Shown here: positions 1 to 32,000 of the stretch, piece after piece
Position numbering within the stretch: position 1 is the stretch's first letter
How the letters are laid out: the number at the start of each line of letters is the position of its first letter
The notes under the pieces: generated by a model
What the model was told of the DNA's origin: nothing
Database searches by the model: none
The model's input: the letters and a program-made list of their open reading frames with translations, nothing else
Source of the DNA: Candidatus Saccharimonadota bacterium
GTDB taxonomy: Archaea > Nanohalarchaeota > Nanosalinia > Nanosalinales > Nanosalinaceae
Reading direction: 5' to 3'
Assembly (NCBI RefSeq): GCF_047555085.1
Contig: NZ_CP180230.1
Location: 900,001-932,000 of the forward strand
Length of the DNA: 32,000 nucleotides
Made by a program: the position numbers and the translations under genes

Positions 1-318
1 CTTGAAGCCTGTGTACTCCGGCGGATTATGTGAGGCCGTTACGATTACAGAGGCCTCTAAATTATTCTTGTACTGTCCGTACTTTACTACAGGCGTAGGG
101 ACAACACCTGCAACTAGAGCATCAGTTCCTGTAGAAGTAAGGCCTTCTGTAAAGGCCTCCAAGATTTTTTCCCCGTGTTCTCTGCCGTCTCTCCCGATCA
201 AAACTTTTTCTGCATCGGTGAATGTTCCGAAGGCCTTGCCTACTTTTTCCGCTTCTTTTTCTCCGATTTCGTCAGGAAAAGTTCCTCTCAGATCGTATGT
301 GTGGAAGAATGAACTCAT
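1..318 (-). CDS. Phosphoglucomutase/phosphomannomutase-family sugar-phosphate mutase, N-terminal 106 codons (partial; continues past the left edge)
   Basis: My own reverse-complement translation from the ATG at 318-316 gives MSSFFHTYDLRGTFPDEIGEKEAEKVGKAFGTF...VIVTASHNPPEYTGFK. This contains the catalytic-serine signature T-A-S-H-N-P-x-x-Y-x-G-x-K of alpha-D-phosphohexomutases. The ORF is not in the supplied track; the listed + strand ORF 2..334 is its antisense. Confidence 0.85.
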   Translation of the reverse strand, partial: MSSFFHTYDLRGTFPDEIGEKEAEKVGKAFGTFTDAEKVLIGRDGREHGEKILEAFTEGLTSTGTDALVAGVVPTPVVKYGQYKNNLEASVIVTASHNPPEYTGFK

Positions 319-321
319 TTT

Positions 322-843
322 TTATCTCCAGTAGTCTTCAAGTATCTCTGATTTTTCTTTGTACTCTTCCTGCATATCTGGCAGGGATTTCTTCATGACT
401 TTTGTATCAAGTGAAGTCTCCATGAAGCCTCTATCTTTCTCGTAGATCGGTACTAGCTGTACATGTAGATGCGGAATAGATTCTCCTGCTGCTTTCCCTA
501 TATTCATGCCAACATCGATTCCAGCGGGCTCGACTACTTCCCTCTGAAGCTCTTCAACTTTCTGCACCATTGCGAACAGACGATTTCTCTCCTCATCCTC
601 GAGATCCGTCATCGAGTTGACGTGACGCTTCGGCACGACCATGATGTGGCCGGTGTTGTACGGGAAGATATTCAGCTCCACCATAAGGAAATCGTCTTCA
701 AATATCGCCAGCTTGGAAACTCTTTCATCGTCAGAGGCCTGTGCACAGAAGATACAGTCGATATCATCCGGCACCTCGTTCGCCTCGTACTCTTCACGTT
801 TCGGACTCCACAGGTACTGTTCGTACGGCTTCAAGTCAGTCAT
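322..843 (-). CDS. HIT (histidine triad) family nucleotide hydrolase/transferase
   Basis: Contains the HIT signature H-L-H-V-Q-L-V-P plus CIFC and HIMVVPKRHV. A TATA-like element (tagaatttaagc, 864-875) lies about 26 bp upstream of the ATG at 843. Its stop is 3 nt from the mutase start, so the two are probably co-transcribed. Confidence 0.9.
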   Translation of the reverse strand: MTDLKPYEQYLWSPKREEYEANEVPDDIDCIFCAQASDDERVSKLAIFEDDFLMVELNIFPYNTGHIMVVPKRHVNSMTDLEDEERNRLFAMVQKVEELQREVVEPAGIDVGMNIGKAAGESIPHLHVQLVPIYEKDRGFMETSLDTKVMKKSLPDMQEEYKEKSEILEDYWR

Positions 844-934
844 AGGAAAACCTTCGGAAAACTAGAATTTAAGCCTTACCGCATAAAGGCCTCTAAACGT
901 CCTGAAACAGAGATTAATACAGAAAAAACTTTTT

Positions 935-1693
935 TTACAGGCTGAGATCCTCAATCTTGTAACGGATCTTCGTCGAGAGGCCTCTCTGCGGAGGTTCTTC
1001 TCCTTTCACACGGTGAGCCACATCATGGATTGCATGTGAAACTTTTGATTTAGGCTTGTGTGCAACTACAGGCTTCCGGAGTGCAATAGCTTCTCTTACA
1101 TGTTTGTGATCCGGTACCTCTCCAATTATCTTTTCCTGTACAAGTTCCTCGATGTCTTCCTGTTTAACTTCCGATTTCTCTCCGCGTACCTCGTTCAGTA
1201 CGAGGCCCAGAATATCTCTTTCCATCTCTTCCGCCAGCTTCTTCGCTCCAAGAGCGTTCGTCAGTGCCGGAAGCTCTGGCTTCGAGACGAGAAGTACTTC
1301 GTCAGAGGCCTCTACTGCTGCCTCTACTTCCTCTCCTACTCCTGCGGCTGCGTCGATGAATACGTAGTCTTTGTCGCCGAGGAAATCGATCAGTGCGTGT
1401 TTCAGATTCTCCGAGTCGGCGTCGAATTCAAGTATGGATGCCGGTAGAATTGAGACTCCTTCAGGGTGTTTTGCCAGGGCCTGTGTGATGTATGCGTCGC
1501 CTTCCATCACGTCGTTCAGGGAGACGTCCTGGAATCCCATTCCGAAGTGCTGTGCGATATTTGCTCCGGAGAAGTTTCCGTCAATTATTACAACGTCTTC
1601 GCCCTGCTTTGAAAGTGCAACTCCGAGATTGGAGGTCATGGTCGTCTTTCCTACTCCTCCTTTTCCGGAGACTACAGAGATTACCCTGGTCAT
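935..1693 (-). CDS. minD: MinD/ParA-family P-loop ATPase (archaeal MinD-like), paralog 1
   Basis: Has the deviant Walker A motif SGKGGVGKTT directly after MTRVISVV. The start was moved from the track's 1750 to the ATG at 1693 because an A/T element (cattaaaaac, 1717-1726) is centred about 28 bp upstream. Confidence 0.85.
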   Translation of the reverse strand: MTRVISVVSGKGGVGKTTMTSNLGVALSKQGEDVVIIDGNFSGANIAQHFGMGFQDVSLNDVMEGDAYITQALAKHPEGVSILPASILEFDADSENLKHALIDFLGDKDYVFIDAAAGVGEEVEAAVEASDEVLLVSKPELPALTNALGAKKLAEEMERDILGLVLNEVRGEKSEVKQEDIEELVQEKIIGEVPDHKHVREAIALRKPVVAHKPKSKVSHAIHDVAHRVKGEEPPQRGLSTKIRYKIEDLSL

Positions 1694-1776
1694 ACAGAGT
1701 AGTTTTAGTTTCGCCGCATTAAAAACCTGACTATTCAGGATATGCTTCAAAGTTCAAAGGAAGTAAAATGGAATAT

Positions 1777-2630: not shown

Positions 2631-5243
2631 CTATCGACCTATCTCTATAACTCCGTTTACAGGCCTGAATCTGGCTCCTGCCTTAATTCTGAGCGAGTCA
2701 CTTTTTATTCTGAAGCTGCCTGTCCATGATCCCGAGATCTCGGCATTCTGGCTTACGTTGAAAAACAGTTTGCCGTTCAGGGATTCAAGATCGGCTTGAG
2801 GCCTGGAGATGAACAATCTAGAGATCTGGTACTCTGAAGCTGTAAACTCTCTGGTACTGTTCAGGACGCATTCAGTCTCTGTAACATGATCACATATACT
2901 GTCAGGATCAGTAGACAGAGTGAAGCTGTTCAAGGCCCAGGAACGTGATATATTCGATGTCCCTCCATGGAACTCCACCGTTACATCCTCAGACTCCGGA
3001 AGATCTACAGAGTAACTCTGTTCGCCCTCAATTAAGAGAACTTTATCAGTCCCCAGCACTTCTCCAGAATAATTCAAGGCCTTTACAGTGGCATTGAGAC
3101 TGGTATTGTCCCTTATTTTTGCATCAGTTGTAAGCGATCGCCATTTTGCTTTATCCTGGCTGTCGGAGTACACAATATCAAGAGAATTAATCCTGCTGGT
3201 GTTATCTCCATCTCCCAGAAAAGATACGTTGAACCGGAAATATCTCGACAGATTGTTCTCCGGGAACTGATCAGAGTACACCCATTGCCCGGAAGAGTTC
3301 ACACCATAGTTTATATTGAAATCTGTTCCCTGAGGCCTCTGATAGTCCAGGAACGCTTTCTTCAGGTAGACCTGTCTGCCCGCATCATAAATTTTTGAGC
3401 TGTACGATCCTGATGTATTGTATCCCAGAGTCGAGCTTAAAGAGTATTCTCCAGGCTCTACAGCCATCCATCCCAGATTCTCTTCGGTATGCGTATCACA
3501 GCTGTTTCCGGATTCTATCTCACAGTATCTTACATCCATACTGGTGCTCTGAATATTTCTGACCTCATCTATCTGAAGTTCCTGTCCTCCGTTCTCGGAA
3601 AGGCCTGAAACAAGGCCTACAGGATTTTCTAGAGATGAGTATGACTGTGTGTTCCAGTTACTGTCAGAAACTACTGTTCCTGTAGTTCCCAGCTCGCTGT
3701 TCGGTATAGGACTGTTTCCTGGCTCTATTGCTATCCATCCTACTGTCTCAGTCGTGTGTCCTCCGTTACAGGCATCCTGAGAATCCTGCTGGCAGATTCC
3801 TCCGGTGAAACTTCCTGATCCATGACTTGAGATACGGGCCTCGACTCCTGGCGTTCCCTGAACCGTCTGGACAGTTGTGAAAGGTACAGGAGCGCTGCTG
3901 AAAGATTCCTGATAGTTTACAGTGTTTGCAGTGCTGGTGAACTCTCCACTGATATCGAATGTTCCAGCCTCGATGCCGTCAACAGAGTTAACCGAGGATG
4001 CGTCTACCGCAATGTAATGTATTATATGCCCAGAAGAGGCCTGACAGCTTCCTCTTCCATCAGAGTCACAGACACGTATAGAAGCTGAACTCTGGCCTAC
4101 ATTGCGCACCTCTGAGATAAGGCCGTTCCCGTTTCCTGTATTCTCTACTGTAGCTACTACAACAGGAGATTCAAAGTTCGAGTAATTTATCTCCATCCAG
4201 TCTCCGCTTGCAGCAGTCAAACTACCTATTTTAACATCGCTTAATTTCTGGAGGCCTAGATTTGAATCCAGAGATTCAGTGCTGTTGAACTCTCCTTTCC
4301 TCCAGTCGCTGTCGGAGTTCAGAAGAGTGTTTTCAGAGTATCTTCGAGAATAACTCGAGTTGAAAAAGCCTTCAAGGCCGTTAAAGTATGAACTGTTTAT
4401 CTCCTGATCTGAAAGAGCGCGCTGATGGATCCTGAATTCATCTATAGTTCCGTTGAATCTTGTATCTACAGATGATCCTCCCTGATCGCCGTTGAAGGAT
4501 GAGGCCTCTGATCCTGTTCCTATGAATCCGTAACGTGTTGCTCCTGTACCCAGAGAGTTCCCTCCATGGGCGCTGGCGGATGCTACCTGGATGCCGTCAA
4601 CGAAAATTTTCTTGCTGGTGGCTGCATCTGAGTCATACCATCCGCAGGCGTAATGCCATTTTCCATCCGCGTAGCTCTTTGAAGTAGCCAGGTCGTGAGT
4701 GTTTCCTGATGAATCTGTTGTATCCCATGCTATGTGGCTGCCGGAAGAGGAATCATCATCGAAGGAGAAACGCCAGTACTCGCTTCTATCGAATGATGCG
4801 ATGAAGTTTCCGTATCCTGTTTCAGCATCTGTTGATTTAACCCAGCTGCATACCGTGATCTGATCTATTTCACCGCTTGAAGTATATTTTTTCCTGAGAG
4901 CAAGATAATCATCCGATCCATCAAGATTTACTGCAGATGATGAGAGTACTCCGGGCGCAGTCGTGTTGACACCATTGTATGCCACAGCACCGTAACCGTT
5001 CTGCGAATAACCTGTAAACTCTCCGCCGTTGCCGGAGACATTCTCCTCGAACCTCCAAAGAGTATCTAAACCATCCGAAGTAGAATTGTGATATCCCATA
5101 GTCAGGCCTTCAGAACTGTTGTAGAAAGTGCCGTTGAACTCTCCTTTTTCCCACTGCGTCCTGTCCGAGGCCTGAAAATCCATGGAGAGGCCTGTGGAAG
5201 AAATGGCAATCACAGCAGCTAACAGGACAAAAATGTTGCGCAT
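2631..5243 (-). CDS. Secreted or surface-anchored LamG (concanavalin A-like lectin) domain protein, Ser/Thr/Asn-rich, probable N-glycoprotein
   Basis: Has an N-terminal signal/TM segment (MRNIFVLLAAVIAISSTGLS). A Laminin_G_3-type region spans about aa 60-285 and ends in the hallmark IDEFRIHQRALSDQEI. I counted about 21 N-x-S/T sequons. Three internal repeats lie at aa 346-598. A TATA-like gatattaaat (5267-5276) lies upstream. Confidence 0.8.
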   Translation of the reverse strand: MRNIFVLLAAVIAISSTGLSMDFQASDRTQWEKGEFNGTFYNSSEGLTMGYHNSTSDGLDTLWRFEENVSGNGGEFTGYSQNGYGAVAYNGVNTTAPGVLSSSAVNLDGSDDYLALRKKYTSSGEIDQITVCSWVKSTDAETGYGNFIASFDRSEYWRFSFDDDSSSGSHIAWDTTDSSGNTHDLATSKSYADGKWHYACGWYDSDAATSKKIFVDGIQVASASAHGGNSLGTGATRYGFIGTGSEASSFNGDQGGSSVDTRFNGTIDEFRIHQRALSDQEINSSYFNGLEGFFNSSYSRRYSENTLLNSDSDWRKGEFNSTESLDSNLGLQKLSDVKIGSLTAASGDWMEINYSNFESPVVVATVENTGNGNGLISEVRNVGQSSASIRVCDSDGRGSCQASSGHIIHYIAVDASSVNSVDGIEAGTFDISGEFTSTANTVNYQESFSSAPVPFTTVQTVQGTPGVEARISSHGSGSFTGGICQQDSQDACNGGHTTETVGWIAIEPGNSPIPNSELGTTGTVVSDSNWNTQSYSSLENPVGLVSGLSENGGQELQIDEVRNIQSTSMDVRYCEIESGNSCDTHTEENLGWMAVEPGEYSLSSTLGYNTSGSYSSKIYDAGRQVYLKKAFLDYQRPQGTDFNINYGVNSSGQWVYSDQFPENNLSRYFRFNVSFLGDGDNTSRINSLDIVYSDSQDKAKWRSLTTDAKIRDNTSLNATVKALNYSGEVLGTDKVLLIEGEQSYSVDLPESEDVTVEFHGGTSNISRSWALNSFTLSTDPDSICDHVTETECVLNSTREFTASEYQISRLFISRPQADLESLNGKLFFNVSQNAEISGSWTGSFRIKSDSLRIKAGARFRPVNGVIEIGR
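3450..4208 (-). repeat. Three tandem protein-level repeats of about 75-85 aa inside the LamG surface protein
   Basis: Repeat 1: DWMEINYSNFESPVVVATVENTG...EVRNVGQSSASIRVCDSDGRGSC...HIIHYIAVD. Repeat 2: NTVNYQESFSSAPVPFTTVQTVQG...ARISSHGSGSFTGGICQQDSQDAC...TVGWIAIEPG. Repeat 3: NWNTQSYSSLENPVGLVSGLSENG...EVRNIQSTSMDVRYCEIESGNSC...NLGWMAVEPG. Confidence 0.75.
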
Positions 5244-5346: not shown

Positions 5347-5364
5347 GGCTCCTTATTCGTGTGT

Positions 5365-8223
5365 ATGACTGAGGATTTCGCCTCCAAATTGAATGTTATA
5401 GAGGATAAATGGCAGGAAAAATGGCAAGAGGAAAGAGTTTTCGAGTCCGATCCAAACAATGATGACAAGTTCTTCATCACCGTGGCTTATCCGTATCCGA
5501 GCGGCGGGATGCATATCGGACACGTCGGAACGTATACACTGCCGGATGTCTTCGCACGTTTCAAGCGTATGCAGGGATACAACGTACTTTTCCCTATGGC
5601 CTGGCATGTTACAGGAACCCCTATCATTGGAGCCTTGAACCGTCTGAAGGACGGAGAAGAAGATCAGTGGAATACCTTAACGAATGTGTACAATGTTCCT
5701 GAGGAAGAGCTTGAGGCCATGGAGGAGCCGATGGATTATGCGAACTACTTTATCGAAAACAGTTACAAGCCGAACATGAAGAATCTAGGATTCTCTGTCG
5801 ACTGGAGACGCGAATTCACTACTAACGATGATCACTACAACAGATTTATCGAATGGCAGTACAAACGCTTGAGAGAAAAAGATCTTGTCAAGAAAGGAAT
5901 GCATCCTACAAAGTACTGCCTGAACGATGAGAACCCTGTAACCACCCACGACCTGCTTGAAGGAGAGGACGCGGAAAAACAGGAGTACACACTTGTCAAG
6001 TTCACCGGAGAATACGACGGAAAAGAAGTAATCCTGCCAATGGCGACTTTGAGGCCTGAAACAGTCTTCGGAGTAACACATACACTCGCCGATCCTTCAT
6101 CAACGTACAAACTTGTGGAAGTCGATGGAGAAAACTGGATCGTCAGCGAAGAGGCCTCTGAAAAACTTGAACACCAGGACAGAGAAGTTAAGATCACCGG
6201 AGACGTCCCAGGCGAAGATATAGTCGGCGAATACTTCAGAAATCCTGTAACAGATGATGAAGTCATCATGCTTCCGGCTGATTTCGTGGAAACTGATTCA
6301 GGATCAGGCCTCGTCATGTCTGTTCCTGCACACGCTCCTTACGACTGGATCTCCCTTCAGGACTTGAAAGAGTCAGAGGCCTTGCTGAAGGAGTACGGGA
6401 TTTCTCCTAACGAGGTCAGGAGTATCGAGCCGAAACAGATAATCAATACAGAGTACTATACAGGGATGCCTGCTGAAGAGGCCTGTAATAATTACGATGT
6501 AGAGTCCCAAGGCGATGAAGAGGCCTTGGAGAAGGCGACTGAAGAGGTTTACGAGAAGGAGTTCCACAACGGGAAGTTGAACGGTTCATGCGGCGATTAT
6601 GCATCAGAGAACGTGAACTCTGTGAAAGATGTACTTATCAAGGATTTCGAGGATGATGGATTCTTCGACTCCATGTACGATTTCTCAGAGGAAGTTGTCT
6701 GTCGCTGCGGTGGCAAAGTTATCGTGGCGATGCAGGAGTCATGGTTCCTGGAGTACGGCGATCCGGGATGGAAGGACAAAGTCCAGAAGCTGATGAACAA
6801 TATCGACATCATTCCCGATGAGAAACGGGAGGACTACGAGCACACCGTTGACTGGCTTGAGTCATGGCCTGCGATCAGAAACTTCGGGCTTGGAACAAAG
6901 CTGCCGTTCGACGACGAATTCGTAGTCGAGCCACTCTCGGACTCCACCATCTACATGGCCTTCTACACGATCAGAAACATCATCAGAGACGTCGAATCAG
7001 AGAAACTTGATCCAGAGTTCTTCGACTACGTGTTCAACGAGAAAGGAGAGGCCTCGGAAGTAGCAGAAAAAACAGGAATCGATCTCGAGATAGTTGAAAA
7101 AGCACGTGAAAGCTTCGATTACTGGTACCCTCTTGACTGGAGGACTTCAGCCTATCCACTGATCCAGAATCACCTGACGTTCATGATGTACCATCATACA
7201 GCTTTATTCGAGCAGGATGACTGGCCTCAGGGAATAGCAACGTGGGGACTCGGGACACTGGAAGGTAAGAAGATGTCAAGCAGCAAAGGCCACGTAAAAC
7301 TTCCAGACAACGCTATAAACGAGTACGGAGCCGATACAACAAGATTCTTCATCTTTGCTTCACGTGAGCCATGGCAGGACTTCGACTGGAACGAAGACGA
7401 CGTTGAAGAATACTTCAACAAAGTCAGAAACTTCTACAATCGAAGCCTTGAACTTTACAACACCGGCGAAGAAAGAGAGATGAACAGGCTCGACAGATAC
7501 GCACTTTCCCGACTTCAGAAAATCGTACGGGAAGCAACAGAAGGCCTAGAAGAATTCCAGACACGTAAAGCAGGCCTGAACGCTTTCTTCGAGATGAACT
7601 CTCTGATCAACAGATACAGAACACGTTCAGACACTTTGAACAGAGAAGTAGTCAACGAGCTCGTGGAGAAACAGATCAGGCTCATGTCGCCTTTCACGCC
7701 ACACATCTGTGAGGAACTGTGGAACGAGATAGGCGGCGAAGGATTCGTCTCAAAGGCTGAATGGCCGGAAGCCGACGAAGAACTTATCGATGAAGAAGTA
7801 GAGGCCTCTGAAGATCTTGTACAGGAAACGATGAGTGATATCCGGGAAGTAGCGGATATCGTAGGCGACTATGAAGAGATAAAGATCATAGTCGCAGGCG
7901 AAGAGAAGAGAGAACTTTTCAGAGAGCTGAATAAAACTGTAGATGACAGGCCTGAATTCGGAGAGGCCATGCAGCAGCTGATCGAGTCAACAGGTTCAGA
8001 GCCAGAGACTATAGAAAGTTATCTGAAGAACTACCTGAACTCGCCGGGAGATCTTCCTGAGAACGTATTCAGCGAAGACGACGAACTCGAGATCCTTGAG
8101 GAAAACGAGAAATTCCTGGAGAAAGAGTTCGATTCCTGGGTAGATATAGTCACAGAAGAAGACTCTGAAGACGAAAAGGCCTCAAGAGCAGAGCCAGGAA
8201 AGCCAGCAATCATACTGGAGTAA
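5365..8223 (+). CDS. leuS: Leucyl-tRNA synthetase (archaeal type)
   Basis: Class I signatures are present: [12 protein letters not shown] (HIGH) and KMSSSKG (KMSKS). Length is about 950 aa. The ATG at 5365 is preferred over the track's GTG at 5359 on promoter spacing. Confidence 0.95.
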
Positions 8224-8272: not shown

Positions 8273-9097
8273 TCAGTTCAATGTATCTCCAGAAGAGACT
8301 TTCGAAGGCCTTCTGAGCTGGTACAGGGCCTTGATCTCGGGAGCTGAAAGAGATCTGTCATATATCCTGACGTCGTCCAGTCTGCCGTCCAGATAACCTC
8401 TTTCTATGTTGTTCGTAGCAGGATTGTTATTGTCGTAAGCTCTTGCTCCTATCCTTATATCGTTTAATTTCAACGGCGTACCGTCGTTACTTCTTGATCC
8501 TTCTCTTGTCCCATTGATGAATAGAACCGCCTGTGAAGAAGAGAGTTGTATCGTAACGTGAACCCACTGGCCGAAACTATGAGTACTTGATTTCAGATTT
8601 ACAGCACCGCTGCCATCACCTGCAAACTCAAAGTTCAGATAACTGAAATCAGAAGTTGAATTTGAACCCTGATCCAGCGTAAAACCTGTCTCATAGTCAT
8701 TATACGGATCTTCAGTCGCAGAACACAGAGCTCTGTAATCACCAGAGTTGCTCGCGATATTCACCCATAGCGCAACCGTCAGCTCTGAAACATCAGAAAA
8801 TCCTGTAGAAAAACACCGTACCACATCATCTGTTCCATCAAAACTGAGACATGAACTTCCGATTTTCGAACTGGAACTCCATGATGCGCCATTAACCGTT
8901 CCATCATTTCCCAGGGCCTTATCGACTGCTGTAGTGCCTGAGCCGGAGTCCATAGGATAGTAAGCTACGAGGCCTTGAGTCAATGATCCGTGCCTGTATC
9001 CCTGTTCTAGGCCTCCACCGGAAATTTTCTCTGTAGCAGTACCGCTGGAATCCTGTGGATTCTGGAAGTCGTCTCCGTTCCAGGAAAGTTTCGGCAT
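8273..9097 (-). CDS. LamG (concanavalin A-like lectin) domain protein with no obvious signal peptide
   Basis: Shows typical Laminin_G_3 landmarks: GLVAYYPMDSGSGTTAVD...GNDGTVNGASW, LSFDGTDDVV and LDDVRIYDRSLSAPEIKALY. Confidence 0.8.
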   Translation of the reverse strand: MPKLSWNGDDFQNPQDSSGTATEKISGGGLEQGYRHGSLTQGLVAYYPMDSGSGTTAVDKALGNDGTVNGASWSSSSKIGSSCLSFDGTDDVVRCFSTGFSDVSELTVALWVNIASNSGDYRALCSATEDPYNDYETGFTLDQGSNSTSDFSYLNFEFAGDGSGAVNLKSSTHSFGQWVHVTIQLSSSQAVLFINGTREGSRSNDGTPLKLNDIRIGARAYDNNNPATNNIERGYLDGRLDDVRIYDRSLSAPEIKALYQLRRPSKVSSGDTLN

Positions 9098-10131: not shown

Positions 10132-10263
10132 AAAAATTTCAGGCCTCTCGACAGAATTTTTTCTCTACTTTTCTGTTGAATAGGCCTTTACAGGAATTTT
10201 TATTTTACGGTTTCTGGGTGTTGGTAGGTGTTTATACCGGTTTTCAGGCCTGATTTTTAGCCA

Positions 10264-10300
10264 TTTTTATATACGTTGGTGATAACAGTTTCTATAGATA
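10264..10300 (+). promoter_or_regulatory. Promoter region upstream of ftsZ with two TATA-like elements
   Basis: The elements are tttttatata (10264-10273) and tttctatagata (10289-10300), upstream of the ATG at 10314. Which one is used cannot be decided from sequence. Confidence 0.35.
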
Positions 10301-10313
10301 GGGTTGCTGTAAT

Positions 10314-11418: not shown

Positions 11419-11438
11419 AGGCCTCTTCAAGGAGGCCT
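11419..11438 (+). terminator. Hairpin from two AGGCCT copies (7-bp stem AGGCCTC/GAGGCCT, 6-nt loop) 14 nt after the ftsZ stop, followed by T-rich DNA
   Basis: The context reads taaaaaaaaattttcagAGGCCTCttcaagGAGGCCTtgtacatactcatttttcattaattttt. Confidence 0.5.
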
Positions 11439-12251: not shown

Positions 12252-12689
12252 ATGATACTTACTGCCCGAACGACACGAGGACGAGAAAAGACTGCCGTAA
12301 ACGCTCTTAAAAGCAAAGTTAAGAACAAAGATCTTGATATAAAGGCGGTTTTCCATCCTGAGGATCTGAAAGGATACATCTTTATCGAAGGTTCTGAATC
12401 CGATATCCGTGATCTCTCATCCGAAGTTAGAGCTATCAACGGAATCATTGATGAGGAAGTAGGCGTCGATGAGATCGAGAAGTATCTAAGCGATGAGCAG
12501 GAAGAGATCAAGATCGAGGAAGGCGACGAAGTCGAGGTTATCGGCGGAGCCTTCAAGGGCGAAGAAGCGAAGATCACCAGAGTCGATGAAACCAACAGAG
12601 AAGTCACAATCGAACTTCTCGACGCAGCTGTACCGATCCCGACAACTGTAGATGCGGACATGGTACGGAAGAAGGCAAATCAGGGCTAA
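12252..12689 (+). CDS. spt5: Transcription elongation factor Spt5 (archaeal NusG)
   Basis: Has an NGN domain (KGYIFIEG) and a KOW motif (GDEVEVIGGAFKGEEAKITRVD). Synteny is secE-spt5-L11. Confidence 0.9.
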   Translation: MILTARTTRGREKTAVNALKSKVKNKDLDIKAVFHPEDLKGYIFIEGSESDIRDLSSEVRAINGIIDEEVGVDEIEKYLSDEQEEIKIEEGDEVEVIGGAFKGEEAKITRVDETNREVTIELLDAAVPIPTTVDADMVRKKANQG

Positions 12690-12737
12690 AAAACACAAAA
12701 AATTAATTTCAATCAATAATCACGAGGTAAAAATATT

Positions 12738-13238
12738 ATGGGAGACAAGACTACCATCAGCACATTGGTAGAAGGAGGATCAGCTTCTGCTGGGCCTCCG
12801 CTAGGACCAGAACTAGGACCACTCCCTACAGACGTAGGAGAAGTGGTCGGCAAAATCAACGAGAAAACTTCAGAGTTTGAAGGACAGGAAGTACCTGTAG
12901 ATGTCATCGTAGACGAGGAAACAGGAGACTTCGAGATCGAAGTCGGAAAGCCTCCTGCAGCAGGCCTCATCAAGGAAGAGGTCGGTATTGCATCAGGAGC
13001 AGCAGAGCCTAACAGAGAAAAGGTTGCTGACATGTCCTTCGACCAGCTCTGCAAAGTCGCACGCATGAAAGCTTCGGATCTAGTCGCGAAGGATCTTCGT
13101 GGAGCGATCAAGGAGATCGCAGGCACCGCCCAGTCTATGGGAGTGCAGATCGACGGCAAGGATGCGTACGATTTCCAGCATGAAGTCTCTGAAGGAAAAT
13201 ACGACGATAAAATCGAGGCCGCGGAGGGCCTCAACTAG
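12738..13238 (+). CDS. rpl11: 50S ribosomal protein L11 (uL11)
   Basis: Contains VEGGSASAGPPLGPELGPL. An SD-like gaggt (12724-12728) lies upstream and the operon context fits. Confidence 0.95.
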   Translation: MGDKTTISTLVEGGSASAGPPLGPELGPLPTDVGEVVGKINEKTSEFEGQEVPVDVIVDEETGDFEIEVGKPPAAGLIKEEVGIASGAAEPNREKVADMSFDQLCKVARMKASDLVAKDLRGAIKEIAGTAQSMGVQIDGKDAYDFQHEVSEGKYDDKIEAAEGLN

Positions 13239-13244
13239 AGGTGA
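13238..13244 (+). promoter_or_regulatory. Shine-Dalgarno site (GAGGTGA) for L1
   Basis: It lies 6 nt upstream of the ATG at 13251 and overlaps the L11 stop codon region. Confidence 0.6.
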
Positions 13245-13250
13245 TAATTA

Positions 13251-13871
13251 ATGGATTTTGAAGAAGCAGTTGAGAGAGCGATTGAGGAAGCTGAAGACAG
13301 GAACTTCACTGAGAGTGTTGATCTGATTATGAACTTCAGAGGCCTCGATCTTTCCGATCCTAACAACAGGATCAACGATGATCTGAAGCTGCCGAATCAG
13401 GCAGATGAGGACATCAAGATCGCAGTCATTGGAGATTCTCTGAGCGGGGACAGCGCTGATAGACATATCAGTGAAGATGAGCTTGAGGAGATGTTTGATG
13501 AGCCTAACAAGGCGAAGAAGCTTGCTGATGATTTCACTTTCCTGATTGCAGAGGCACCTCTGATGCCTAAGATCGGACAGCAGCTTGGACAGGTATTCGG
13601 ACCGCGCAACATGATGCCGGATCCAACACCTCCAGGAAGCGATCTTGAGGACGAGATCGAGGATCTGAGGAATACGGTTTCGCTCTCAGTTAAGGAGCAG
13701 CCTCTTCTACAGATCAAAGTTGGTAAGGAGGATCACGATCCTAGCGATGTAGCTAGAAACGCCAACACAGTCTACAATTTTGTGGAAGAGAATCTTCCTC
13801 AGGGAGGAAACCACATCAAAAACGTCATGGTGAAGACCACCATGGGACCTTCAGTAGAGGTGGATAACTAA
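13251..13871 (+). CDS. rpl1: 50S ribosomal protein L1 (uL1)
   Basis: The position between L11 and L10, the length (206 aa), and motifs such as FLIAEAPLMPKIGQQLGQVFGPRNMMP support the call. Confidence 0.9.
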   Translation: MDFEEAVERAIEEAEDRNFTESVDLIMNFRGLDLSDPNNRINDDLKLPNQADEDIKIAVIGDSLSGDSADRHISEDELEEMFDEPNKAKKLADDFTFLIAEAPLMPKIGQQLGQVFGPRNMMPDPTPPGSDLEDEIEDLRNTVSLSVKEQPLLQIKVGKEDHDPSDVARNANTVYNFVEENLPQGGNHIKNVMVKTTMGPSVEVDN

Positions 13872-13913
13872 TGCGAAAATCCAAGATTTTCTCCATTAGC
13901 CCAGAAAACAACG

Positions 13914-13920
13914 GAGGTGT
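13914..13920 (+). promoter_or_regulatory. Shine-Dalgarno site (GGAGGTG) for L10/P0
   Basis: It lies 9 nt upstream of the ATG at 13930. Confidence 0.6.
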
Positions 13921-17481: not shown

Positions 17482-18816
17482 ATGAGCAACAAAACACTGA
17501 AGGATATTGATCGGGCCATCAGGGAGTTGAGATCCGAGATAGAGATCTACAGCAGAGTGACTCCTGAGAACTCTGAAGAGGCCAGGAAAAAATTTGAGGA
17601 GAGTATAAAAGGAGAAGTACCTGAATCAGAGGCCTCTGTCCGTGAAGACGTTGTTAACGAAGTTGTAAGCGATACTGTAGCATCCTCTATTACTCCTGAC
17701 GATCTTGGAGCCGAAGAGATAAGAGAACAGGATATCGAAGATCCTGAATTTGAGTATATTGATCAGGAAAGTTTTGAAGACGTCAGAAGAGAGCTTGCCA
17801 GATTCGAGAGAGATCTTGATGAAACAGATGCTTCTGAGACAGTAAAAGAGATGTACAGAGATACTATCGAAGAAGGAATGGCTTTGATTGATATCGCCGA
17901 GAATCTTGGAGATCCGGAAGCGGTGCAGGAGGCCTCAAGAAGGATTTACGGCGAGCCATCCGAAAGTACTGTTGAATGGGCAGACGAAGTGCTTCAAAAT
18001 GAAGAATCTGCTGATGATCCAAGGTATACGGAAGGAAGATTCTCGACTACAGACATGAAGGAGTCTCTAGAGAAGACTCTGGCTCTTCTGGATATGGAGG
18101 AATGGACTGTAGACACCAGAGAAAAAGGCTCTATGAAAGTTAACGCTGCGAATCAGGAAGTCAGTGTCCCGGAGGGAAGAGAGTTTACAGAGAACGAAAT
18201 GATGAGACTTCTGGTACACGAAATCGGCACACACGCCCTGAGAGGAGCAAACGGATACAAACAGGAGTTCGGCGTGATGGGATCAGGAACAGGACATTAT
18301 CATCAGGCCGCCGAAGGAATCGCTTTCTTCCTGGAGGAGGCTACAGGCCTCTCAAATCCGGACAACAAGAAAAAGTACGCTGCACGAGTTAAATCCGTGG
18401 AATCTGTTATGGACGGAAACGACTTCACAGACACCTATATCATGAACAGGGAGTTCGGATTCGATCACGACAAGGCCTGGAATATAAGCCTGAGAGCTCA
18501 CAGAGGCGGCGGATTCATCAAGGATCATATCTACGCCGAAGGCTTCAGGCAGATAGAGGCCTATCTGAAAGAAAGCGATGACGTTGAGAACAGCGACGGA
18601 CTTGAGGAGTTCATGGCTATGGACGGACATCTGGAGGATCTTATGGCTGGAAAGATTTCAGTCGAACAGGGCTATAATCTTAGAGGAGAGTTAGAGGCCG
18701 AATACAGCCCTATGACTGTGATAGAGAATCTGGATTATCTGACGCCCGATGGCGTTGATACAAGCGTCGTGGACGTTGATCCAAGGCTGCAGCAGTGGTA
18801 CTCTCAGGCCTCCTAG
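17482..18816 (+). CDS. DUF1704-type putative zinc metallopeptidase (HExxH; MATCAP / tyrosine carboxypeptidase-like family)
   Basis: Contains LLVHEIGTHALRG (HEIGTH at 18217-18234), followed by AAEGIAFFLEE, which resembles the family's QEGLA motif. The N-terminal about 200 aa are acidic. The ATG at 17482 is supported by aaaaatacttaaaattc (17447-17463). Confidence 0.6.
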   Translation: MSNKTLKDIDRAIRELRSEIEIYSRVTPENSEEARKKFEESIKGEVPESEASVREDVVNEVVSDTVASSITPDDLGAEEIREQDIEDPEFEYIDQESFEDVRRELARFERDLDETDASETVKEMYRDTIEEGMALIDIAENLGDPEAVQEASRRIYGEPSESTVEWADEVLQNEESADDPRYTEGRFSTTDMKESLEKTLALLDMEEWTVDTREKGSMKVNAANQEVSVPEGREFTENEMMRLLVHEIGTHALRGANGYKQEFGVMGSGTGHYHQAAEGIAFFLEEATGLSNPDNKKKYAARVKSVESVMDGNDFTDTYIMNREFGFDHDKAWNISLRAHRGGGFIKDHIYAEGFRQIEAYLKESDDVENSDGLEEFMAMDGHLEDLMAGKISVEQGYNLRGELEAEYSPMTVIENLDYLTPDGVDTSVVDVDPRLQQWYSQAS

Positions 18817-21686: not shown

Positions 21687-21706
21687 AGGCCTGAAAAAAC
21701 AGGCCT
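21687..21706. terminator. Hairpin from two AGGCCT copies (7-bp stem AGGCCTG/CAGGCCT, loop AAAAAA) in the convergent gap after alaS
   Basis: The sequence acAGGCCTGaaaaaaCAGGCCTcag lies 12 nt after the alaS stop and 19 nt from the stop of the minus-strand gene. On the minus strand the loop reads TTTTTT. Confidence 0.5.
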
Positions 21707-22732: not shown

Positions 22733-22938
22733 CGGAAAACACCTATCATCCTTATCTTTTTACCCAGTACGTCTTTCGCACGTGTCTCAACGAGGCCTTC
22801 CTTTTCCAGTATGTTGAGGCATCTGTGTACATCTTCTTCACTCCATTCAAGTTCCTGAGCGACTTTCGCCGCCGATATTTTTTCGCCTTCACCTATCAAT
22901 TCTTTCGAGGCCTTCAGAACTTTCCTTTTTCTTTCCAC
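22729..22938 (-). CDS. Small winged-helix DNA-binding protein (69 aa)
   Basis: Contains ISAAKVAQELEWSEEDVHRCLNILEKEGLVETR, a typical wHTH recognition segment. A GTG start is required because there is no N-terminal ATG. The element tgataaattc (22961-22970) is centred about 27 bp upstream. It overlaps the convergent neighbour by 4 nt (CTAG). Confidence 0.6.
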   Translation of the reverse strand: MERKRKVLKASKELIGEGEKISAAKVAQELEWSEEDVHRCLNILEKEGLVETRAKDVLGKKIRMIGVFR

Positions 22939-22975
22939 GTAAAACTATAAACATCGACAGTGATAAATTCAGTGT

Positions 22976-23218
22976 ATGGGCCTTAATGAAGCTGAAGAGG
23001 AGTTAAATGAAGGAGACTACGATAACGCAGTCAACGATCTTGAAGAGGAGATCGATTCCGTCGAAAGAGATTTCGAGTCTATAAAGGATGAGGAGGCCTC
23101 TGGAGAACTAAAGGAGAAGCAGGAGAAGGCCGAGGAAATCCTGGATGAGATACATGATCAGCTGCATGTTCTGCAGAAACATATAGAGAACGCCAGCGAA
23201 ACAAATAAAAATTTTTAA
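22976..23218 (+). CDS. Small acidic coiled-coil hypothetical protein (80 aa)
   Basis: The ORF has a helical, acidic sequence. The element aaaactataaac (22941-22952) is centred about 29 bp upstream. It lies immediately upstream of hsp20. Confidence 0.45.
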   Translation: MGLNEAEEELNEGDYDNAVNDLEEEIDSVERDFESIKDEEASGELKEKQEKAEEILDEIHDQLHVLQKHIENASETNKNF

Positions 23219-23246
23219 AGACATATACAAAACGGTGAGTATCCAA

Positions 23247-23672
23247 ATGAGACGCCTAAAGAGACAGGATGACCTCGATGACATCTTCAAGCAGATGGAA
23301 AACGTATTCAACAAGTTCCAGGAGAAGGGAACAGATTTTGCCTCGGAACTGAGGCCTAACTTCCCTGTAGACATCGCAGAGGAGGACGGCGAATTCGTAA
23401 TCACAGCCGATCTTCCGGGAGTCAACAAGGAAGAAATCAACATCAAGGCCGATGAAGAGTCAGTAGACATCTCTGCAGAATCCAGCGCAGAAGTAGAGGA
23501 AGAGAACGAGAAGTACTACAGAAAGGAGCGATCACACAGAAGATTCAACAGAAGAGTGAACTTCCCTGCGAAAGTAGATGCTGATACAGTCGAGGCAGAG
23601 TACAAGGACGGTGTGCTGACTATCACAGCCGAGAAAGATGTCGAGGAAGGACGCGACATCGAGATCGAGTAA
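23247..23672 (+). CDS. hsp20: Small heat shock protein, Hsp20/alpha-crystallin family
   Basis: Has an alpha-crystallin domain: VDIAEEDGEFVITADLPGVNKEEINIKADEESVDISAE...FNRRVNFPAKVDADTVEAEYKDGVLTITAEK. The ATG at 23247 is preferred over the GTG at 23235. Confidence 0.9.
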   Translation: MRRLKRQDDLDDIFKQMENVFNKFQEKGTDFASELRPNFPVDIAEEDGEFVITADLPGVNKEEINIKADEESVDISAESSAEVEEENEKYYRKERSHRRFNRRVNFPAKVDADTVEAEYKDGVLTITAEKDVEEGRDIEIE

Positions 23673-29466: not shown

Positions 29467-30210
29467 ATGACTTACTCCGATTTCGAGGATTATGCGGCCT
29501 TGTATGATATAGTTTCCGAGAGTAAGAGTGATGGGAGAGATGTCGAGTTCTACGTTGAAGAGGCCTCTAAAGTTGATGGGAAGGTCTTGGAGGTTGCGTG
29601 TGGGACTGGCCGGATCTATCTGGAGATGCTGGAGGCCGGTGTTGATGCGTACGGTATCGATATCTCTGAGGCGATGCTCGAAATTTTGAGGGAGAAAGCC
29701 GAGAGTAGAGGCCTTGAGCCGGAAGTTGAGAAGGCGAATATGCAGGATTTTGATCTGGATGAAAAATTTTCCCTAATTATGATTCCGTACCGGAGTTTTC
29801 ATCATAATTTAACTGTGGATGATCAGCTGGCGACGCTTGAGACGATCTACGAACATCTTGAGGATGGCGGAAAATTTATACTGAATTTTTACTGTCCGGA
29901 TTTCGAGTTCATCAGTGAGAACTACGGGGAAGAACTGAGAAGTGATATCGAAGGACATCCGGAACTTGAGTTAGTTGAGTTCAACGAGTTTGTGGATCCT
30001 GTGGATATGATCATCGAGTTCGAGAAAAAAGTTCTTGAGGACGGTGAAGTGAAATGGTCTTCTACTGGGAAAAGCAAGATGACGACTAAGACGGAGTTTG
30101 AGCTTTTGTTGCGGAACTCAAGTTTCTCAGAGTGGAATGTCTACGGTGGTTTTGATCTTGAGGAGCTGGAAAACTCGGAGCAGGAGATGGTCTGGATAAT
30201 AGAGAAATGA
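29467..30210 (+). CDS. Class I SAM-dependent methyltransferase (small-molecule/RNA type)
   Basis: Contains motif I, VLEVACGTGRIYLEMLEAGVDAYGIDISEAML. No DNA-methyltransferase (D/N/S)PP(Y/F) or PCQ motifs are present. A TATA-like gaaaattttaacg (29434-29446) lies upstream. Confidence 0.8.
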   Translation: MTYSDFEDYAALYDIVSESKSDGRDVEFYVEEASKVDGKVLEVACGTGRIYLEMLEAGVDAYGIDISEAMLEILREKAESRGLEPEVEKANMQDFDLDEKFSLIMIPYRSFHHNLTVDDQLATLETIYEHLEDGGKFILNFYCPDFEFISENYGEELRSDIEGHPELELVEFNEFVDPVDMIIEFEKKVLEDGEVKWSSTGKSKMTTKTEFELLLRNSSFSEWNVYGGFDLEELENSEQEMVWIIEK

Positions 30211-30596
30211 AGCTGAAAGTTTTCGATACAGAGATTTTTCTGGATGAAAGTCTTGTAGAGGCCTCTGAAGACGAGATCAGGAGACAGGTGAAAGAGTATC
30301 TTTTAGGAGAACAAGAAGTTTTTGAACTGGATTTTTCGAGGCCGGAAAATTTTACAGGGAAAGTTATGGAGGAGATGCTGGAGATCCCGCGTGGCGAGAC
30401 CAGAAGTTACGGCGAGATTGCAGAGGCCTTGGATTCTGCTGCGATTGCTGTTGGTCAGGCCTGTGGAAGGAATCCTTTGCCGTTGATTGTTCCTTGTCAC
30501 AGGGTTGTCGGGAAAAGTTCTGTTGGTGGTTACTGCGGTGAGAAAGACAGTTTGGCGAAGAAAAAGTTGCTGGAGCTGGAAGAGTCAGATTTTTAA
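30207..30596 (+). CDS. ogt: Methylated-DNA--protein-cysteine methyltransferase (Ogt/MGMT) DNA-binding/active-site domain
   Basis: Has the active-site IVPCHRVVG (PCHR at 30492-30503), preceded by GETRSYGEIA. An ATGA overlap with the upstream methyltransferase suggests translational coupling. Confidence 0.85.
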   Translation: MKLKVFDTEIFLDESLVEASEDEIRRQVKEYLLGEQEVFELDFSRPENFTGKVMEEMLEIPRGETRSYGEIAEALDSAAIAVGQACGRNPLPLIVPCHRVVGKSSVGGYCGEKDSLAKKKLLELEESDF

Positions 30597-30693
30597 CTCT
30601 GCCCGCAAAAATTCTGGTTACAATGAAAGGTGGATGTGTTTCTACCGGCTACGTTTGCAACTTGTAGGCCTGTTTTAGGTCAGTTAAAACCTG

Positions 30694-30707
30694 TTTTAGA
30701 TAAAAAT
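30694..30707 (+). promoter_or_regulatory. TATA-like box for serS (leaderless)
   Basis: The element ttttagataaaaat is centred about 27 bp upstream of the ATG at 30728. Confidence 0.5.
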
Positions 30708-30727
30708 TTCTGCACAAGTGATTATAC

Positions 30728-31996
30728 ATGTTAGATATTGAACTGTTCCGTGAGAGTCCTGAGATTATTAAGGCCTCTGAGGAGAGGCGTGGGAAAGATC
30801 CTGAAAGAGTTGATAAAGTAGTTGAATTGGATGAGGCCTGGCGTGAGACTTTGCAGAGGCTTCAGGAGCTTCAGGAGAAGCGGAACTCTGTCGGGGACAA
30901 GATTGCTGAACTGAAAAAGAACGGTGAGGATGCCCAAGAATATATTGAAAAGATGCAGGAGGTTAAAGAGACGATCTCCGAGCTTGAAGAAGATGTAGAA
31001 GCTTTGAAGGCGGAGCGTGATGAGTTAAGATATCGTGTAGGGAATGTTCTGCATGATTCTGTTCCTGAGGGAGATGATGAAGATGATAACAGGGAGATCA
31101 AGACATGGGAGCCGGATTCAGGCATAGATGAAGATGCGGAGCTTGCTGCGGATATCCTGCAGGAGAACGATCTCGTGGAGACTGAGAAAGCGGCTGAATT
31201 ATCCGGCGAACGCGCTTATTATCTGAAAAATGAGTTGTTCCGCTTGAATCAGGCCTTGATCCAGTTCTCGATGGATCTGCTTGAGGAAAAAGATTTCACG
31301 CCTATGCAGACTCCTTACTACTTGAAGCACAGGCCTATGGAGGCTGCTGCAGAGCTTGAGGATTTTGAGGAGCAGCTTTACAAGATCGAGGATGAGGATA
31401 AGTACCTGATTGCGACTTCGGAACAGACTCTGGCGACTTTCCACATGGATGAAATTTTGCAGCCTCAGGATCTTCCGAAGAAGTACGCCGGATTTTCCAC
31501 GAACTTCAGGCAGGAGGCCGGTAAGCACGGACAGGAGACTCGTGGGATCTGGCGCGTCCACCAGTTTGAGAAAGTTGAGCAGTACATTTTTTGCGAACCG
31601 GAGGAAAGCTGGGATAAACACGAGGAGTTACTTGAAAATTCCGAGGAAGTTATGCAGAAGCTAGGCCTTCCGTACAGAGTTGTCAACGTCTGTACAGGCG
31701 ACATGAACGATAACGCGGCTAAAAAGTACGATGTTGAAGTGTGGAGGCCTCCTCTTCAGGAGTACGGAGAAGTTGTGTCCTGCAGTAACTGTACTGATTT
31801 CCAGGCCCGAAAAGTCGGTGTCCGGATCAGAAGGGACGGCGACAATGAGACTGCTCACACGTTGAACGCGACAGCGTGCGCTACTTCAAGAGTTATGACG
31901 GCTATCATCGAGAACAATCAGACTGAGCAGGGGATCAAGATTCCTGAGCCGCTTCAGAAGTACATGGGCGGAAAAGAGTTTATCGAATTAGAGTAA
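30728..31996 (+). CDS. serS: Seryl-tRNA synthetase
   Basis: Has an N-terminal coiled-coil tRNA-binding arm (MLDIELFRESPEIIKASEERRG...) and a class II core (FRQEAGKHGQETRGIWRVHQFEKVEQ, TLNATACATSRVMTAIIENNQ). Confidence 0.95.
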   Translation: MLDIELFRESPEIIKASEERRGKDPERVDKVVELDEAWRETLQRLQELQEKRNSVGDKIAELKKNGEDAQEYIEKMQEVKETISELEEDVEALKAERDELRYRVGNVLHDSVPEGDDEDDNREIKTWEPDSGIDEDAELAADILQENDLVETEKAAELSGERAYYLKNELFRLNQALIQFSMDLLEEKDFTPMQTPYYLKHRPMEAAAELEDFEEQLYKIEDEDKYLIATSEQTLATFHMDEILQPQDLPKKYAGFSTNFRQEAGKHGQETRGIWRVHQFEKVEQYIFCEPEESWDKHEELLENSEEVMQKLGLPYRVVNVCTGDMNDNAAKKYDVEVWRPPLQEYGEVVSCSNCTDFQARKVGVRIRRDGDNETAHTLNATACATSRVMTAIIENNQTEQGIKIPEPLQKYMGGKEFIELE

Positions 31997-32000
31997 ATTC

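Follow-up and report, generated by a model that had tools for sequence, protein, structure and literature searches.

Highly iterated palindromes (HIPs) are known from cyanobacteria, where HIP1 (GCGATCGC) and the alternate words GGCGCC, GCsGC and rCCGGy have been described (Elhai 2015, PMC4390886; Xu et al. 2018, PMC5861425). Each HIP variant co-occurs with a cognate methyltransferase, including alternate 6-mer HIPs such as GGCGCC, which reach an observed/expected ratio of about 15. One-off deviants of HIP1 concentrate at the outer positions of the word, the central positions being the least variable (Elhai, PMC4390886). From the conservation of sites Xu et al. inferred selection and a nucleoid role for HIP1 and found no support for an RNA role (PMC5861425). 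Methylated HIP1 boosts transformation and recombination, and HIP1 correlates with DNA-uptake genes. What causes HIPs and what they do is still debated after 30 years; a repair bias, the structure of the nucleoid and a tag for uptake or recombination are the candidates. Here we analysed the hexamer AGGCCT in a 32,000-base stretch of contig NZ_CP180230.1 (this whole stretch is called the window) that matches Candidatus Nanosalina sp. VS9-1, a nanohaloarchaeon (DPANN; LeuS proteins 100% identical). AGGCCT is best read as a highly iterated palindrome of the HIP type, shared by the Nanosalina-like nanohaloarchaea of one genus-level clade.

AGGCCT was found in 129 exact copies (4.03 per kb or 4030 per Mb) and was the most frequent of all hexamers in the window, followed by its own overlaps GAGGCC (90) and GGCCTC (60). 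The runner-up among palindromic hexamers reached 34 copies. An earlier note on this DNA, made from the sequence alone, had counted about 129 copies by hand and had estimated the excess over composition at roughly 20-fold. The count proved exact, and the excess was 19.2-fold under a zero-order model and about 18-fold compared to 100 dinucleotide-preserving shuffles (7.07±2.61 copies expected, maximum 14) at a window GC content of 46.6%. Among the 217 GGCC tetramers, 129 (59%) were flanked by A and T, in line with the earlier statement that well over half of them are, and each of the two flanking bases occurred at 76% compared to a baseline of about 27%. One-base neighbours were rare, as had been noted before, with 3 to 20 copies each (AGGCCG 20, AGGCCC 15, GGGCCT 14, AGGCCA 12, TGGCCT 9 and CGGCCT 3). 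Beyond the hexamer the preference was weak and symmetric, with G at position -1 in 46% and A at position -2 in 40% of sites (and C at +1 as the counterpart). A quarter of the copies (32 of 129, 25%) did extend to GAGGCCTC, as previously reported, but this extension reflects only a modest flank preference (G at -1); 13 copies extended to AGAGGCCTCT. Intergenic sites shared the GAGGCCTC-type preference (17/40 half-sites, p = 0.006), and extended conserved flanks around the sites were not found.

The copies were evenly spread over the window (2-kb bins, dispersion index 0.82, chi-square p = 0.66) with Poisson-like spacings that fit an exponential distribution (Kolmogorov-Smirnov p = 0.85). Within these 32 kb we found neither short-range periodicity nor clustering, nor any positional preference relative to genes. 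Only four pairs of sites, two of them intergenic, were 12-14 nt apart, a number that does not exceed the expectation from Poisson spacing.

The observed/expected ratio of AGGCCT decreased with the order of the Markov model from 19.2 (order 0) and 18.1 (order 1) to 5.2 (order 2), 2.1 (order 3) and 1.02 (order 4). The earlier note had proposed that a ratio near 1-2 at order 4 or 5 would refute the excess; this test is however invalid for so dominant a word, and the finding is not weakened by it. The order-4 expectation is calculated as N(AGGCC) x N(GGCCT) / N(GGCC), and about 78% of AGGCC and GGCCT occurrences sit inside AGGCCT itself. Because the sub-words are mostly made of AGGCCT, the ratio of 1.02 is circular and says no more than that, given a GGCC core, an A before it and a T behind it occur independently of each other. 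The excess is confirmed by nulls that do not depend on the word, namely synonymous permutation, codon shuffling and orthologous DNA of sister lineages. With word statistics of maximal Markov order, the strongest signal of a genome can go unseen.

Genes were mapped as 32 open reading frames (ORFs) covering 90% of the window, backed by Pfam matches and orthologues. Nearly all genes carried AGGCCT, with 109 sites in coding and 20 in intergenic DNA, which corresponds to 3.8 sites per kb within genes compared to 6.2 per kb between them. Coding sites occurred in all three phases (AGG CCT 16, xAG GCC Txx 56 and xxA GGC CTx 37), the phases used their opportunities for AGGCCT similarly, and 84% of all sites were located inside conserved genes at synonymous positions. 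When synonymous codons were permuted within genes, 17.4±3.9 copies were expected in coding DNA compared to the 109 observed (6-fold), and shuffling of whole codons gave an expectation of 8.1. Codon choice depended strongly on context. Gly in an A GGN CT context was encoded by GGC in 37 of 41 cases (90%) compared to 25% elsewhere, and Ala in an AG GCN T context by GCC in 55 of 58 cases (95%) compared to 20% elsewhere. The codon preceding GCC-T ended in AG, not AA, in 55/58 cases compared to about 52% elsewhere, and AGGCCT spelled 17 of the 21 Arg-Pro pairs. From the odds ratios, about 27 for Gly and 71 for Ala, our own arithmetic gives S of about 3.3-4.3 per completing substitution. Contexts matching five of the six bases, with the mismatch at an outer position, showed an intermediate preference (0.36-0.49 compared to a baseline of 0.16-0.21). 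Because sites occur in all phases, are denser between genes and go along with a context-dependent codon choice, the signal acts on DNA and is not a peptide or codon-pair effect.

This agrees with the earlier note, which had argued for a DNA-level signal from copies in genes of both strands, in intergenic DNA and in all codon phases, and had given three examples in leuS that indeed lie in phases 0, 1 and 2 relative to the ORF start at 5359. An excess confined to one phase or explained by codon-pair usage, which it had listed as contrary evidence, was not what we found. Its suggestion of an imprint on the proteome held only weakly: the two enriched genomes compared had 44 and 48 compatible peptide contexts and the outgroups 26-39, and about half of the AGGCCT sites fell on amino-acid differences from outgroups, roughly as background divergence predicts. 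Amino-acid composition, codon usage or codon pairs, a repeat family or an assembly artefact could be invoked in view of the maximal-order Markov ratio, and because phase 1 (xAG GCC Txx) has more sites than either other phase and the acidic proteomes of halophiles are rich in Glu-Ala. This group of explanations is refuted by the tests made and retains practically no probability, given the permutation and shuffling results, the similar use of opportunities in all phases and the intergenic excess. In addition, the excess is missing from the orthologous genes of sister lineages, whose proteins and GC content are similar, four independent assemblies agree, and extended flanks are not conserved. REP (repetitive extragenic palindromic) and MITE (miniature inverted-repeat transposable element) sequences were also considered and ruled out, based on the large share of sites at synonymous positions of conserved genes and the lack of flank conservation.

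A function at the RNA level was considered as well, in which the self-complementary AGGCCU of every transcript would pair with itself or bind a factor. The strand symmetry of the palindrome and the presence of sites in nearly all genes are compatible with it. The density is however highest in intergenic DNA, divergent promoter regions included, and a hexamer motif of RNA would a priori be an exact palindrome at the DNA level in only 64 of 4096 cases. The window contains no match to a structured RNA family, neither tRNA genes nor Rfam families being found there, and the analysis of HIP1 by Xu et al. points the same way. We consider an RNA-level role highly improbable.

To place the excess in a phylogenetic context we compared the window with relatives; those recovered with LeuS are Nanohaloarchaea. 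Four species were enriched: VS9-1 itself (18x); NHA29, a metagenome-assembled genome (MAG; L001), with 105 AGGCCT in 22.9 kb of syntenic DNA (19x); a saltern species, P0003, with 62 copies in 22.9 kb of syntenic DNA (14x; L047-L054, i.e. seven JGI/Logan/ENA samples and the near-identical L048); and a species P0002 on an ENA contig (L055), with 37 copies in 15.7 kb, also syntenic (12x). NHA29 has the accession JALDAN01, and the P0003 species is present in the JGI saltern metagenomes 3300026114, 3300007668, 3300026110, 3300007616 and 3300007532. Sister lineages (L003, with the accession JBEQAY01, P0005 and P0017) showed only 1-2x. The non-enriched loci carried 8 sites in L003, 6 in 13 kb in L056 and 3 in 17 kb in L057, and L002, L004, L006 and other relatives were at chance level. 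A tree of eight concatenated proteins (2397 aa) recovered the four enriched taxa as monophyletic with 100% bootstrap support and the topology (NHA29,(VS9-1,(L047,L055))), and the LeuS tree agreed. Since the enriched taxa are monophyletic and their sisters reach only 1-2x, the AGGCCT excess arose once, in the ancestor of this genus-level clade. In 12 shared genes, synonymous opportunities for the word were used in 33 of 44 cases in the window and in 36 of 48 in NHA29, compared to 0-19% in four outgroups, so that AGGCCT is near saturation of the places where the protein permits it. An onset as abrupt as this is in keeping with a mobile gene, for a methyltransferase or for restriction-modification, having been gained.

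The sites are also maintained. Although only 49% of 4-fold degenerate third positions were identical between the window and NHA29, AGGCCT was kept at the same position in 82% of cases compared to 28% for other hexamers, and in 87-100% compared to 38% where amino acids were unchanged. Retention in the other clade members was 52-55% compared to 29-30% for other hexamers. The occupancy of shared opportunities was correlated (0.87 compared to 0.31, Fisher p = 2e-4), and site sharing therefore exceeds what independent saturation would produce. In leuS, 10 of the 12 sites were found at the same position in the NHA29 orthologue, where non-enriched relatives (L003, L002 and others) mostly had words with one or two mismatches such as AAGCAG, AGGTCT or AGACCG; a few of them already carried AGGCCT there (e.g. 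L002 and L005 at alignment column 1201). By parsimony, the lineages of VS9-1 and NHA29 had 11 gains compared to 2 losses. The lower-GC subclade of L047 and L055 had 5 gains compared to 10 losses and a lower occupancy, and the force may be weaker there.

Intergenic AGGCCT was rarely found at homologous positions, although each genome kept several copies per spacer. In the spacer between the FKBP gene and ftsZ (Table 1), only the site at 10246 was positionally shared (with NHA29), and the other genomes had sites at non-homologous positions, a pattern that indicates turnover with replenishment. The force acts on whatever DNA resides in the genome, since the poorly conserved LamG genes match core genes in site density. 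Taken at the level of the DNA, there is a persistent and genome-resident fixation bias toward exact AGGCCT over its one-off neighbours, wherever the protein or the non-coding sequence leaves room for the word. With an effective strength of about S = 3-4 for each completing substitution, this bias began once, in the clade ancestor, and acts still.

A bias of this kind could result from direct selection on each site for a methylation-free DNA function, for example if the clade had gained an abundant protein that organises the nucleoid or chromosome and binds AGGCCT as a dimer. The conservation of sites far above background speaks for this, being the argument that Xu et al. made for HIP1, and so does the form of the sites, which are palindromes with a weak symmetric extension (G at -1, C at +1) also between genes. 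Spacing is Poisson-like, however, with neither short-range order nor a preference relative to genes, and intergenic sites are not positionally conserved. An S of about 3-4 at each of about 4000 sites per Mb would moreover be unusually strong for sites that are individually dispensable, and no candidate protein is known. Direct selection is in our view a possible explanation but not a likely one.

Another indication that the force is still operating might come from a segment of the window reaching from nusG over the genes for L11, L1 and L10 to a glyoxalase gene (Table 1). In trees of nusG-L11-L1-L10 the window grouped with the non-enriched L003 (100% bootstrap) and the other three clade members grouped together (98%), whereas for eight genes to the left of this segment the window was placed inside the enriched clade (100% bootstrap). 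The L1 protein of the window is 91% identical to that of L003 and 73% to that of NHA29, and a glyoxalase gene at this position was found only in the window, L003 and L056. From gene trees and gene content, the segment looks like a homologous import from an L003-like lineage. Six of its 10 opportunities were used in the window compared to 2 of 9 in L003, although these numbers are small. Among the derived changes of the window are AGGACT>AGGCCT, at a position where NHA29 and L055 also have the site, and CGGCCG>AGGCCT through two synonymous changes at the outer positions. These observations fit a force of the resident genome that is still operating. The ribosomal-protein part of the segment (12252-14886) has only 4 AGGCCT sites and is the site-poorest stretch of the window. 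Recent import was rejected as the reason for this, since the native clusters of other clade members are just as poor in sites. The scarcity is better explained by constraint, even though the window copy gained sites compared to L003.

In many respects AGGCCT resembles the cyanobacterial HIPs. Like these it is a short exact palindrome and the top word of its length, with an observed/expected ratio of about 18 compared to about 15 for GGCGCC and a density of the same kind (4030 per Mb compared to 300-2700 per Mb). It occurs in all frames and in non-coding DNA, is conserved between species and is gained and lost by lineages. One-off words also follow the HIP pattern with deviants at outer positions: relative to outgroups, the enriched loci had 1.2-3.9x of words deviating at an outer position (NGGCCT or AGGCCN), 1.0-1.1x of those deviating at positions 2 and 5, and reduced levels of central deviants (AGGTCT/AGACCT 0.54, AGGGCT 0.57 and AGGACT 0.78). 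In outlier rank, fold excess, density, dispersion, conservation and deviant pattern, AGGCCT behaves at the sequence level as HIPs do, which bears out the earlier choice of HIP1 as the closest precedent. There are differences: the word is another one and shorter than HIP1, and the host belongs to another domain of life and is a DPANN ectosymbiont with a genome of roughly 1 Mb. AGGCCT is furthermore restricted to a genus-level clade with a datable single origin while HIP1 is phylum-wide. A periodicity of 10-90 kb is described for HIPs, and the 32-kb window shows only the Poisson-like spacing at short range. In the full texts that we searched, neither iterated palindromes of archaea nor AGGCCT in nanohaloarchaea nor strain VS9-1 were reported; the earlier note likewise was not aware of an equivalent element in archaea.

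Uptake sequences are the other class of over-represented words to be compared. The DNA uptake sequences (DUS) of Neisseria and the uptake signal sequences (USS) of Pasteurellaceae are likewise over-represented at about 1 per kb or more, occupy permissive coding positions, are spread by molecular drive and are lineage-specific. They are however 9-12 nt long, non-palindromic and read by a known competence receptor, and AGGCCT, a 6-bp palindrome with weak flank preference, fails as an uptake sequence by form. Uptake sequences also occur frequently as inverted pairs that make up terminators; for AGGCCT, the close pairs were the four mentioned above. A drive of this type would require a surface or periplasmic receptor that prefers AGGCCT-rich self DNA, with recombination spreading the sites, as for DUS/USS and as recently proposed for HIP1. 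The density of AGGCCT is of the same order as or above that of DUS/USS, permissive coding positions are filled and the onset is clade-specific. HIP1 offers a parallel through its effect on transformation and its correlation with DNA-uptake genes, and the recombinant nusG-L10 segment shows that these lineages exchange DNA. Against this, a 6-bp palindrome is little specific; estimated from composition, the DNA of the haloarchaeal host would contain about 1 site in 3 kb. Known uptake sequences have a different form, and nanohaloarchaea are not known to possess a competence system or receptor, nor was anything of this kind found in the window. We regard uptake-signal drive as rather unlikely.

A methyltransferase appears to us the best candidate for the agent, although we propose it only tentatively and with a little less than even confidence: a StuI-type (AGGCCT) DNA methyltransferase would have been gained by the clade ancestor, and the sites marked by it would be favoured in repair, recombination or DNA uptake. 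The agent would be a protein reading the exact 6-bp palindrome as a dimer, and a dimeric DNA enzyme is suspected because the exact palindrome equals a type IIP specificity. The enzyme, alone or with a partner, would have been acquired horizontally at the base of the clade, and preferential treatment of marked sites would amount to a gene-conversion-like molecular drive, in line with current proposals for HIP1 and its cognate methyltransferases in cyanobacteria. A methyltransferase is favoured because AGGCCT-methylating enzymes exist, because cyanobacterial HIP variants have cognate methyltransferases and because methylated HIP1 boosts transformation.

The genome of Alcanivorax, which provides an example of such an enzyme, is about 3.1 Mb in size. 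In Alcanivorax borkumensis SK2 an AgGCcT restriction-modification system methylates both strands, and the genome contains 1674 sites (PMC12128166). This amounts to about 0.54 sites per kb, roughly 2x composition, compared to 18x in the window. The recognition word of StuI-type systems is thus identical, but targets of restriction-modification are normally neutral or avoided, and the sign is opposite here. Since Alcanivorax has an active AGGCCT system at this low density, a cognate methyltransferase alone does not give hyper-abundance, which is one of several points that weigh against our proposal. No DNA methyltransferase, restriction enzyme or Vsr/Mig-type gene was found within the window. 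The earlier note had seen no DNA-methyltransferase motif there either, and the gene at 29467-30210 encodes only a generic S-adenosylmethionine-dependent methyltransferase. No 5-methylcytosine (PCQ/ENV) or DPPY-type motif was detected in the nanohaloarchaeal loci scanned, which include about 60 kb of DNA from clade relatives, a weak negative given that the regular expressions were loose and the DPPY branch covered only ORFs >200 aa. The polarised single-step losses of AGGCCT (n = 14) had a mixed spectrum that lacked the C>T excess expected from hypermutable 5-methylcytosine, although these are few events. Finally, the independence of the flanks and the graded preference of 5-of-6 words fit graded recognition or plain selection equally well.

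Methylation could also act through very-short-patch (VSP) repair. A 5-methylcytosine methyltransferase for GGCC or AGGCCT, together with a T:G enzyme (Vsr-like or Mig.MthI-like), would over-correct T to C and produce the word as a by-product. In E. coli, Dcm/Vsr is reportedly responsible for such a word bias at CCWGG (Bhagwat and McClelland in 1992). An archaeal pairing of GGCC methylation with a T/G glycosylase exists in M.MthTI/Mig.MthI, and the central neighbour AGGTCT/AGACCT is depleted to 0.54 of the outgroup level, just as methylation-linked repair by Dcm/Vsr shifts its own target word and depletes a neighbour. The Dcm/Vsr effect is however small and limited to T-to-C at the methylated base, whereas AGGCCT displaces all alternative bases, the A and T flanks included, with an occupancy of 90-95%. 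Transversion neighbours are about as depleted (AGGGCT and AGGACT), and the outer A and T cannot be produced by T:G>C:G repair. By our calculation a perfect T>C corrector would cap C at 4-fold sites near 50% under unbiased mutation. The 18x excess is far above known VSP effects, and the polarised losses are again without a C>T excess. VSP repair is disfavoured by the present data and seems very unlikely to us.

It is also conceivable that AGGCCT serves as a self-DNA tag of a DPANN ectosymbiont, which would distinguish its own chromosome, dense in AGGCCT, from the DNA of its haloarchaeal host, poor in this word, by a clade-specific recognition, methylation-dependent or not. The tag might favour tagged DNA in uptake or recombination, or might spare the chromosome from a nuclease scavenging host DNA, and would spread as a gene-conversion-like drive. 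We consider this quite unlikely; if true, a highly iterated palindrome would here be put to a biological use not seen before, and for the first time an ecological reason for such a use could be named.

Whatever the agent, with AGGCCT the range of HIPs would come to include Archaea and a minimal genome (about 1 Mb). The case offers a recent, single and sharply bounded origin, which the cyanobacterial system lacks, with enriched and non-enriched sisters that are syntenic, one subclade that is apparently losing sites and at least one segment that has crossed the clade boundary and is being converted. With such small syntenic genomes the question of what creates these palindromes becomes directly testable, and a comparison of gene content could name the gene. 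A complete genome is available for VS9-1, which can presumably be cultured. In practice the AGGCCT density is a strong barcode for binning the clade, and the excess distorts codon-usage and k-mer based inference.

Table 1. Features of the window and start positions of all AGGCCT copies (numbering of the window)
Feature	Position	Strand	AGGCCT sites	Remarks
LamG-domain gene	2631..5243	-	12 (4.6 per kb)	fast-evolving, patchy
leuS	5359..8223	+	12	all three phases (6052 AGG CCT, 6152 gAG GCC Tct, 6306 tcA GGC CTc); phylogenetic anchor
second LamG gene	8273-9097		3	
FKBP-ftsZ spacer	10132..10313		3 (10141, 10182, 10246)	intergenic; 10246 just upstream of conserved TTTATATA box
intergenic AGGCCT pair	11419..11438			AGGCCTcttcaaggAGGCCT; downstream of ftsZ
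nusG-L11-L1-L10-glyoxalase segment	12252..15372	+	6 overall	
similar AGGCCT pair	21687-21706			downstream of alaS
AGGCCT starts (1/4)	51, 140, 153, 231, 735, 887, 978, 1306, 2148, 2180, 2285, 2661, 2799, 3077, 3333, 3601, 3613, 4037, 4252, 4502, 5104, 5168, 5188, 6052, 6152, 6306, 6377, 6479, 6521, 7049, 7542, 7572, 7802			
AGGCCT starts (2/4)	7948, 8177, 8306, 8970, 9009, 9114, 9137, 9343, 9582, 9651, 9719, 9796, 10141, 10182, 10246, 10574, 11098, 11419, 11433, 11861, 12962, 13340, 14703, 14840, 15157, 15178, 15386, 15716, 15771, 15969, 16449, 16471			
AGGCCT starts (3/4)	16693, 16828, 17029, 17056, 17373, 17630, 17930, 18345, 18473, 18557, 18806, 19112, 19722, 20144, 20432, 20612, 20816, 20975, 21312, 21492, 21659, 21687, 21701, 21986, 22293, 22793, 22908, 23094, 23352, 23741, 24008, 24387			
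AGGCCT starts (4/4)	24869, 24905, 25133, 25279, 25361, 25516, 26289, 26307, 26381, 26483, 26567, 27205, 27328, 27367, 27561, 27617, 27745, 28092, 28607, 28650, 29561, 29709, 30259, 30424, 30457, 30666, 30771, 30834, 31251, 31331, 31663, 31745			

Other short words were under-represented in the same DNA. CTTAAG was nearly absent, with 0 copies compared to 9.2 expected in the window, 3 compared to 30.6 in the four enriched loci and 6 compared to 22.3 in the outgroups. GCTAGC (2 compared to 14.4) and CTAG (46 compared to 115) were also avoided in the window and its enriched relatives. These three words are candidates for real restriction targets in this family. Restriction-site avoidance was rejected for AGGCCT itself, which is over-represented in the very DNA where avoidance was seen for CTTAAG and GCTAGC. 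In related nanohaloarchaea, restriction avoidance is also visible for GDGCHC, and nanohaloarchaeon SVXNc has only 140 copies of this motif, which it methylates. GGCC was near-absent in other lineages (L010, L019 and L017), with 9 copies in 22.8 kb of nanohaloarchaeon MAG_AT22, 11 in NHA25 and 1 in 16 kb of a Methanophagales MAG. This scarcity is a classic HaeIII-type avoidance and the opposite of what is seen in the clade of the window. Two further palindromes were mildly over-represented in the enriched clade only (window and L001), namely TGTACA (29 compared to 11.9) and TCCGGA (50 compared to 22); their observed/expected ratios in outgroups were 0.9 and 1.3.

We also searched IMG/VR for clustered sites of the form GAGGCCTC..AGGCCT..GAGGCCTC. 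The 22 matches were all chance-like or belonged to a 7-bp tandem array (AGGCCTG)n, and no AGGCCT-rich virus of the clade was found with this clustered-site pattern. The loosest triple AGGCCT pattern matches about once per 93 kb of clade DNA, a frequency at which chance matches in metagenomes would prevail. The array was present in three related viral contigs with a GC content of about 55% (L039 10539-10646, L044 13886-14000 and L046 12429-12536). It comprises about 12-13 AGGCCT copies and is unrelated to the dispersed sites of the window; the contigs also carry a 209-aa ORF with a DPPF methyltransferase-like motif.

Some genes and gene-free regions of the window deserve mention. In the window, L047 and L055, leuS lies between two genes for LamG (concanavalin-like) proteins; a single one is present in L056, and none in NHA29 and L003. 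With only 43-65% identity within the clade, these proteins evolve fast and are probably surface proteins. The FKBP-ftsZ spacer, which is 182 bp in the window, contains an extra 138-aa ORF in L047 (P0003 species; about 14693-15109). No confident gene was predicted in a 0.9-kb region at 22733-23637, where the only candidates are the overlapping ORFs 23108-23470(-) and 23235-23672(+); its four AGGCCT sites were counted as intergenic. Adjoining alaS, the window further encodes at 17473-18816 an archaeal protein of the MATCAP family (PF08014, microtubule-associated tyrosine carboxypeptidase; E = 3e-46), which is only 44% identical to its NHA29 orthologue.

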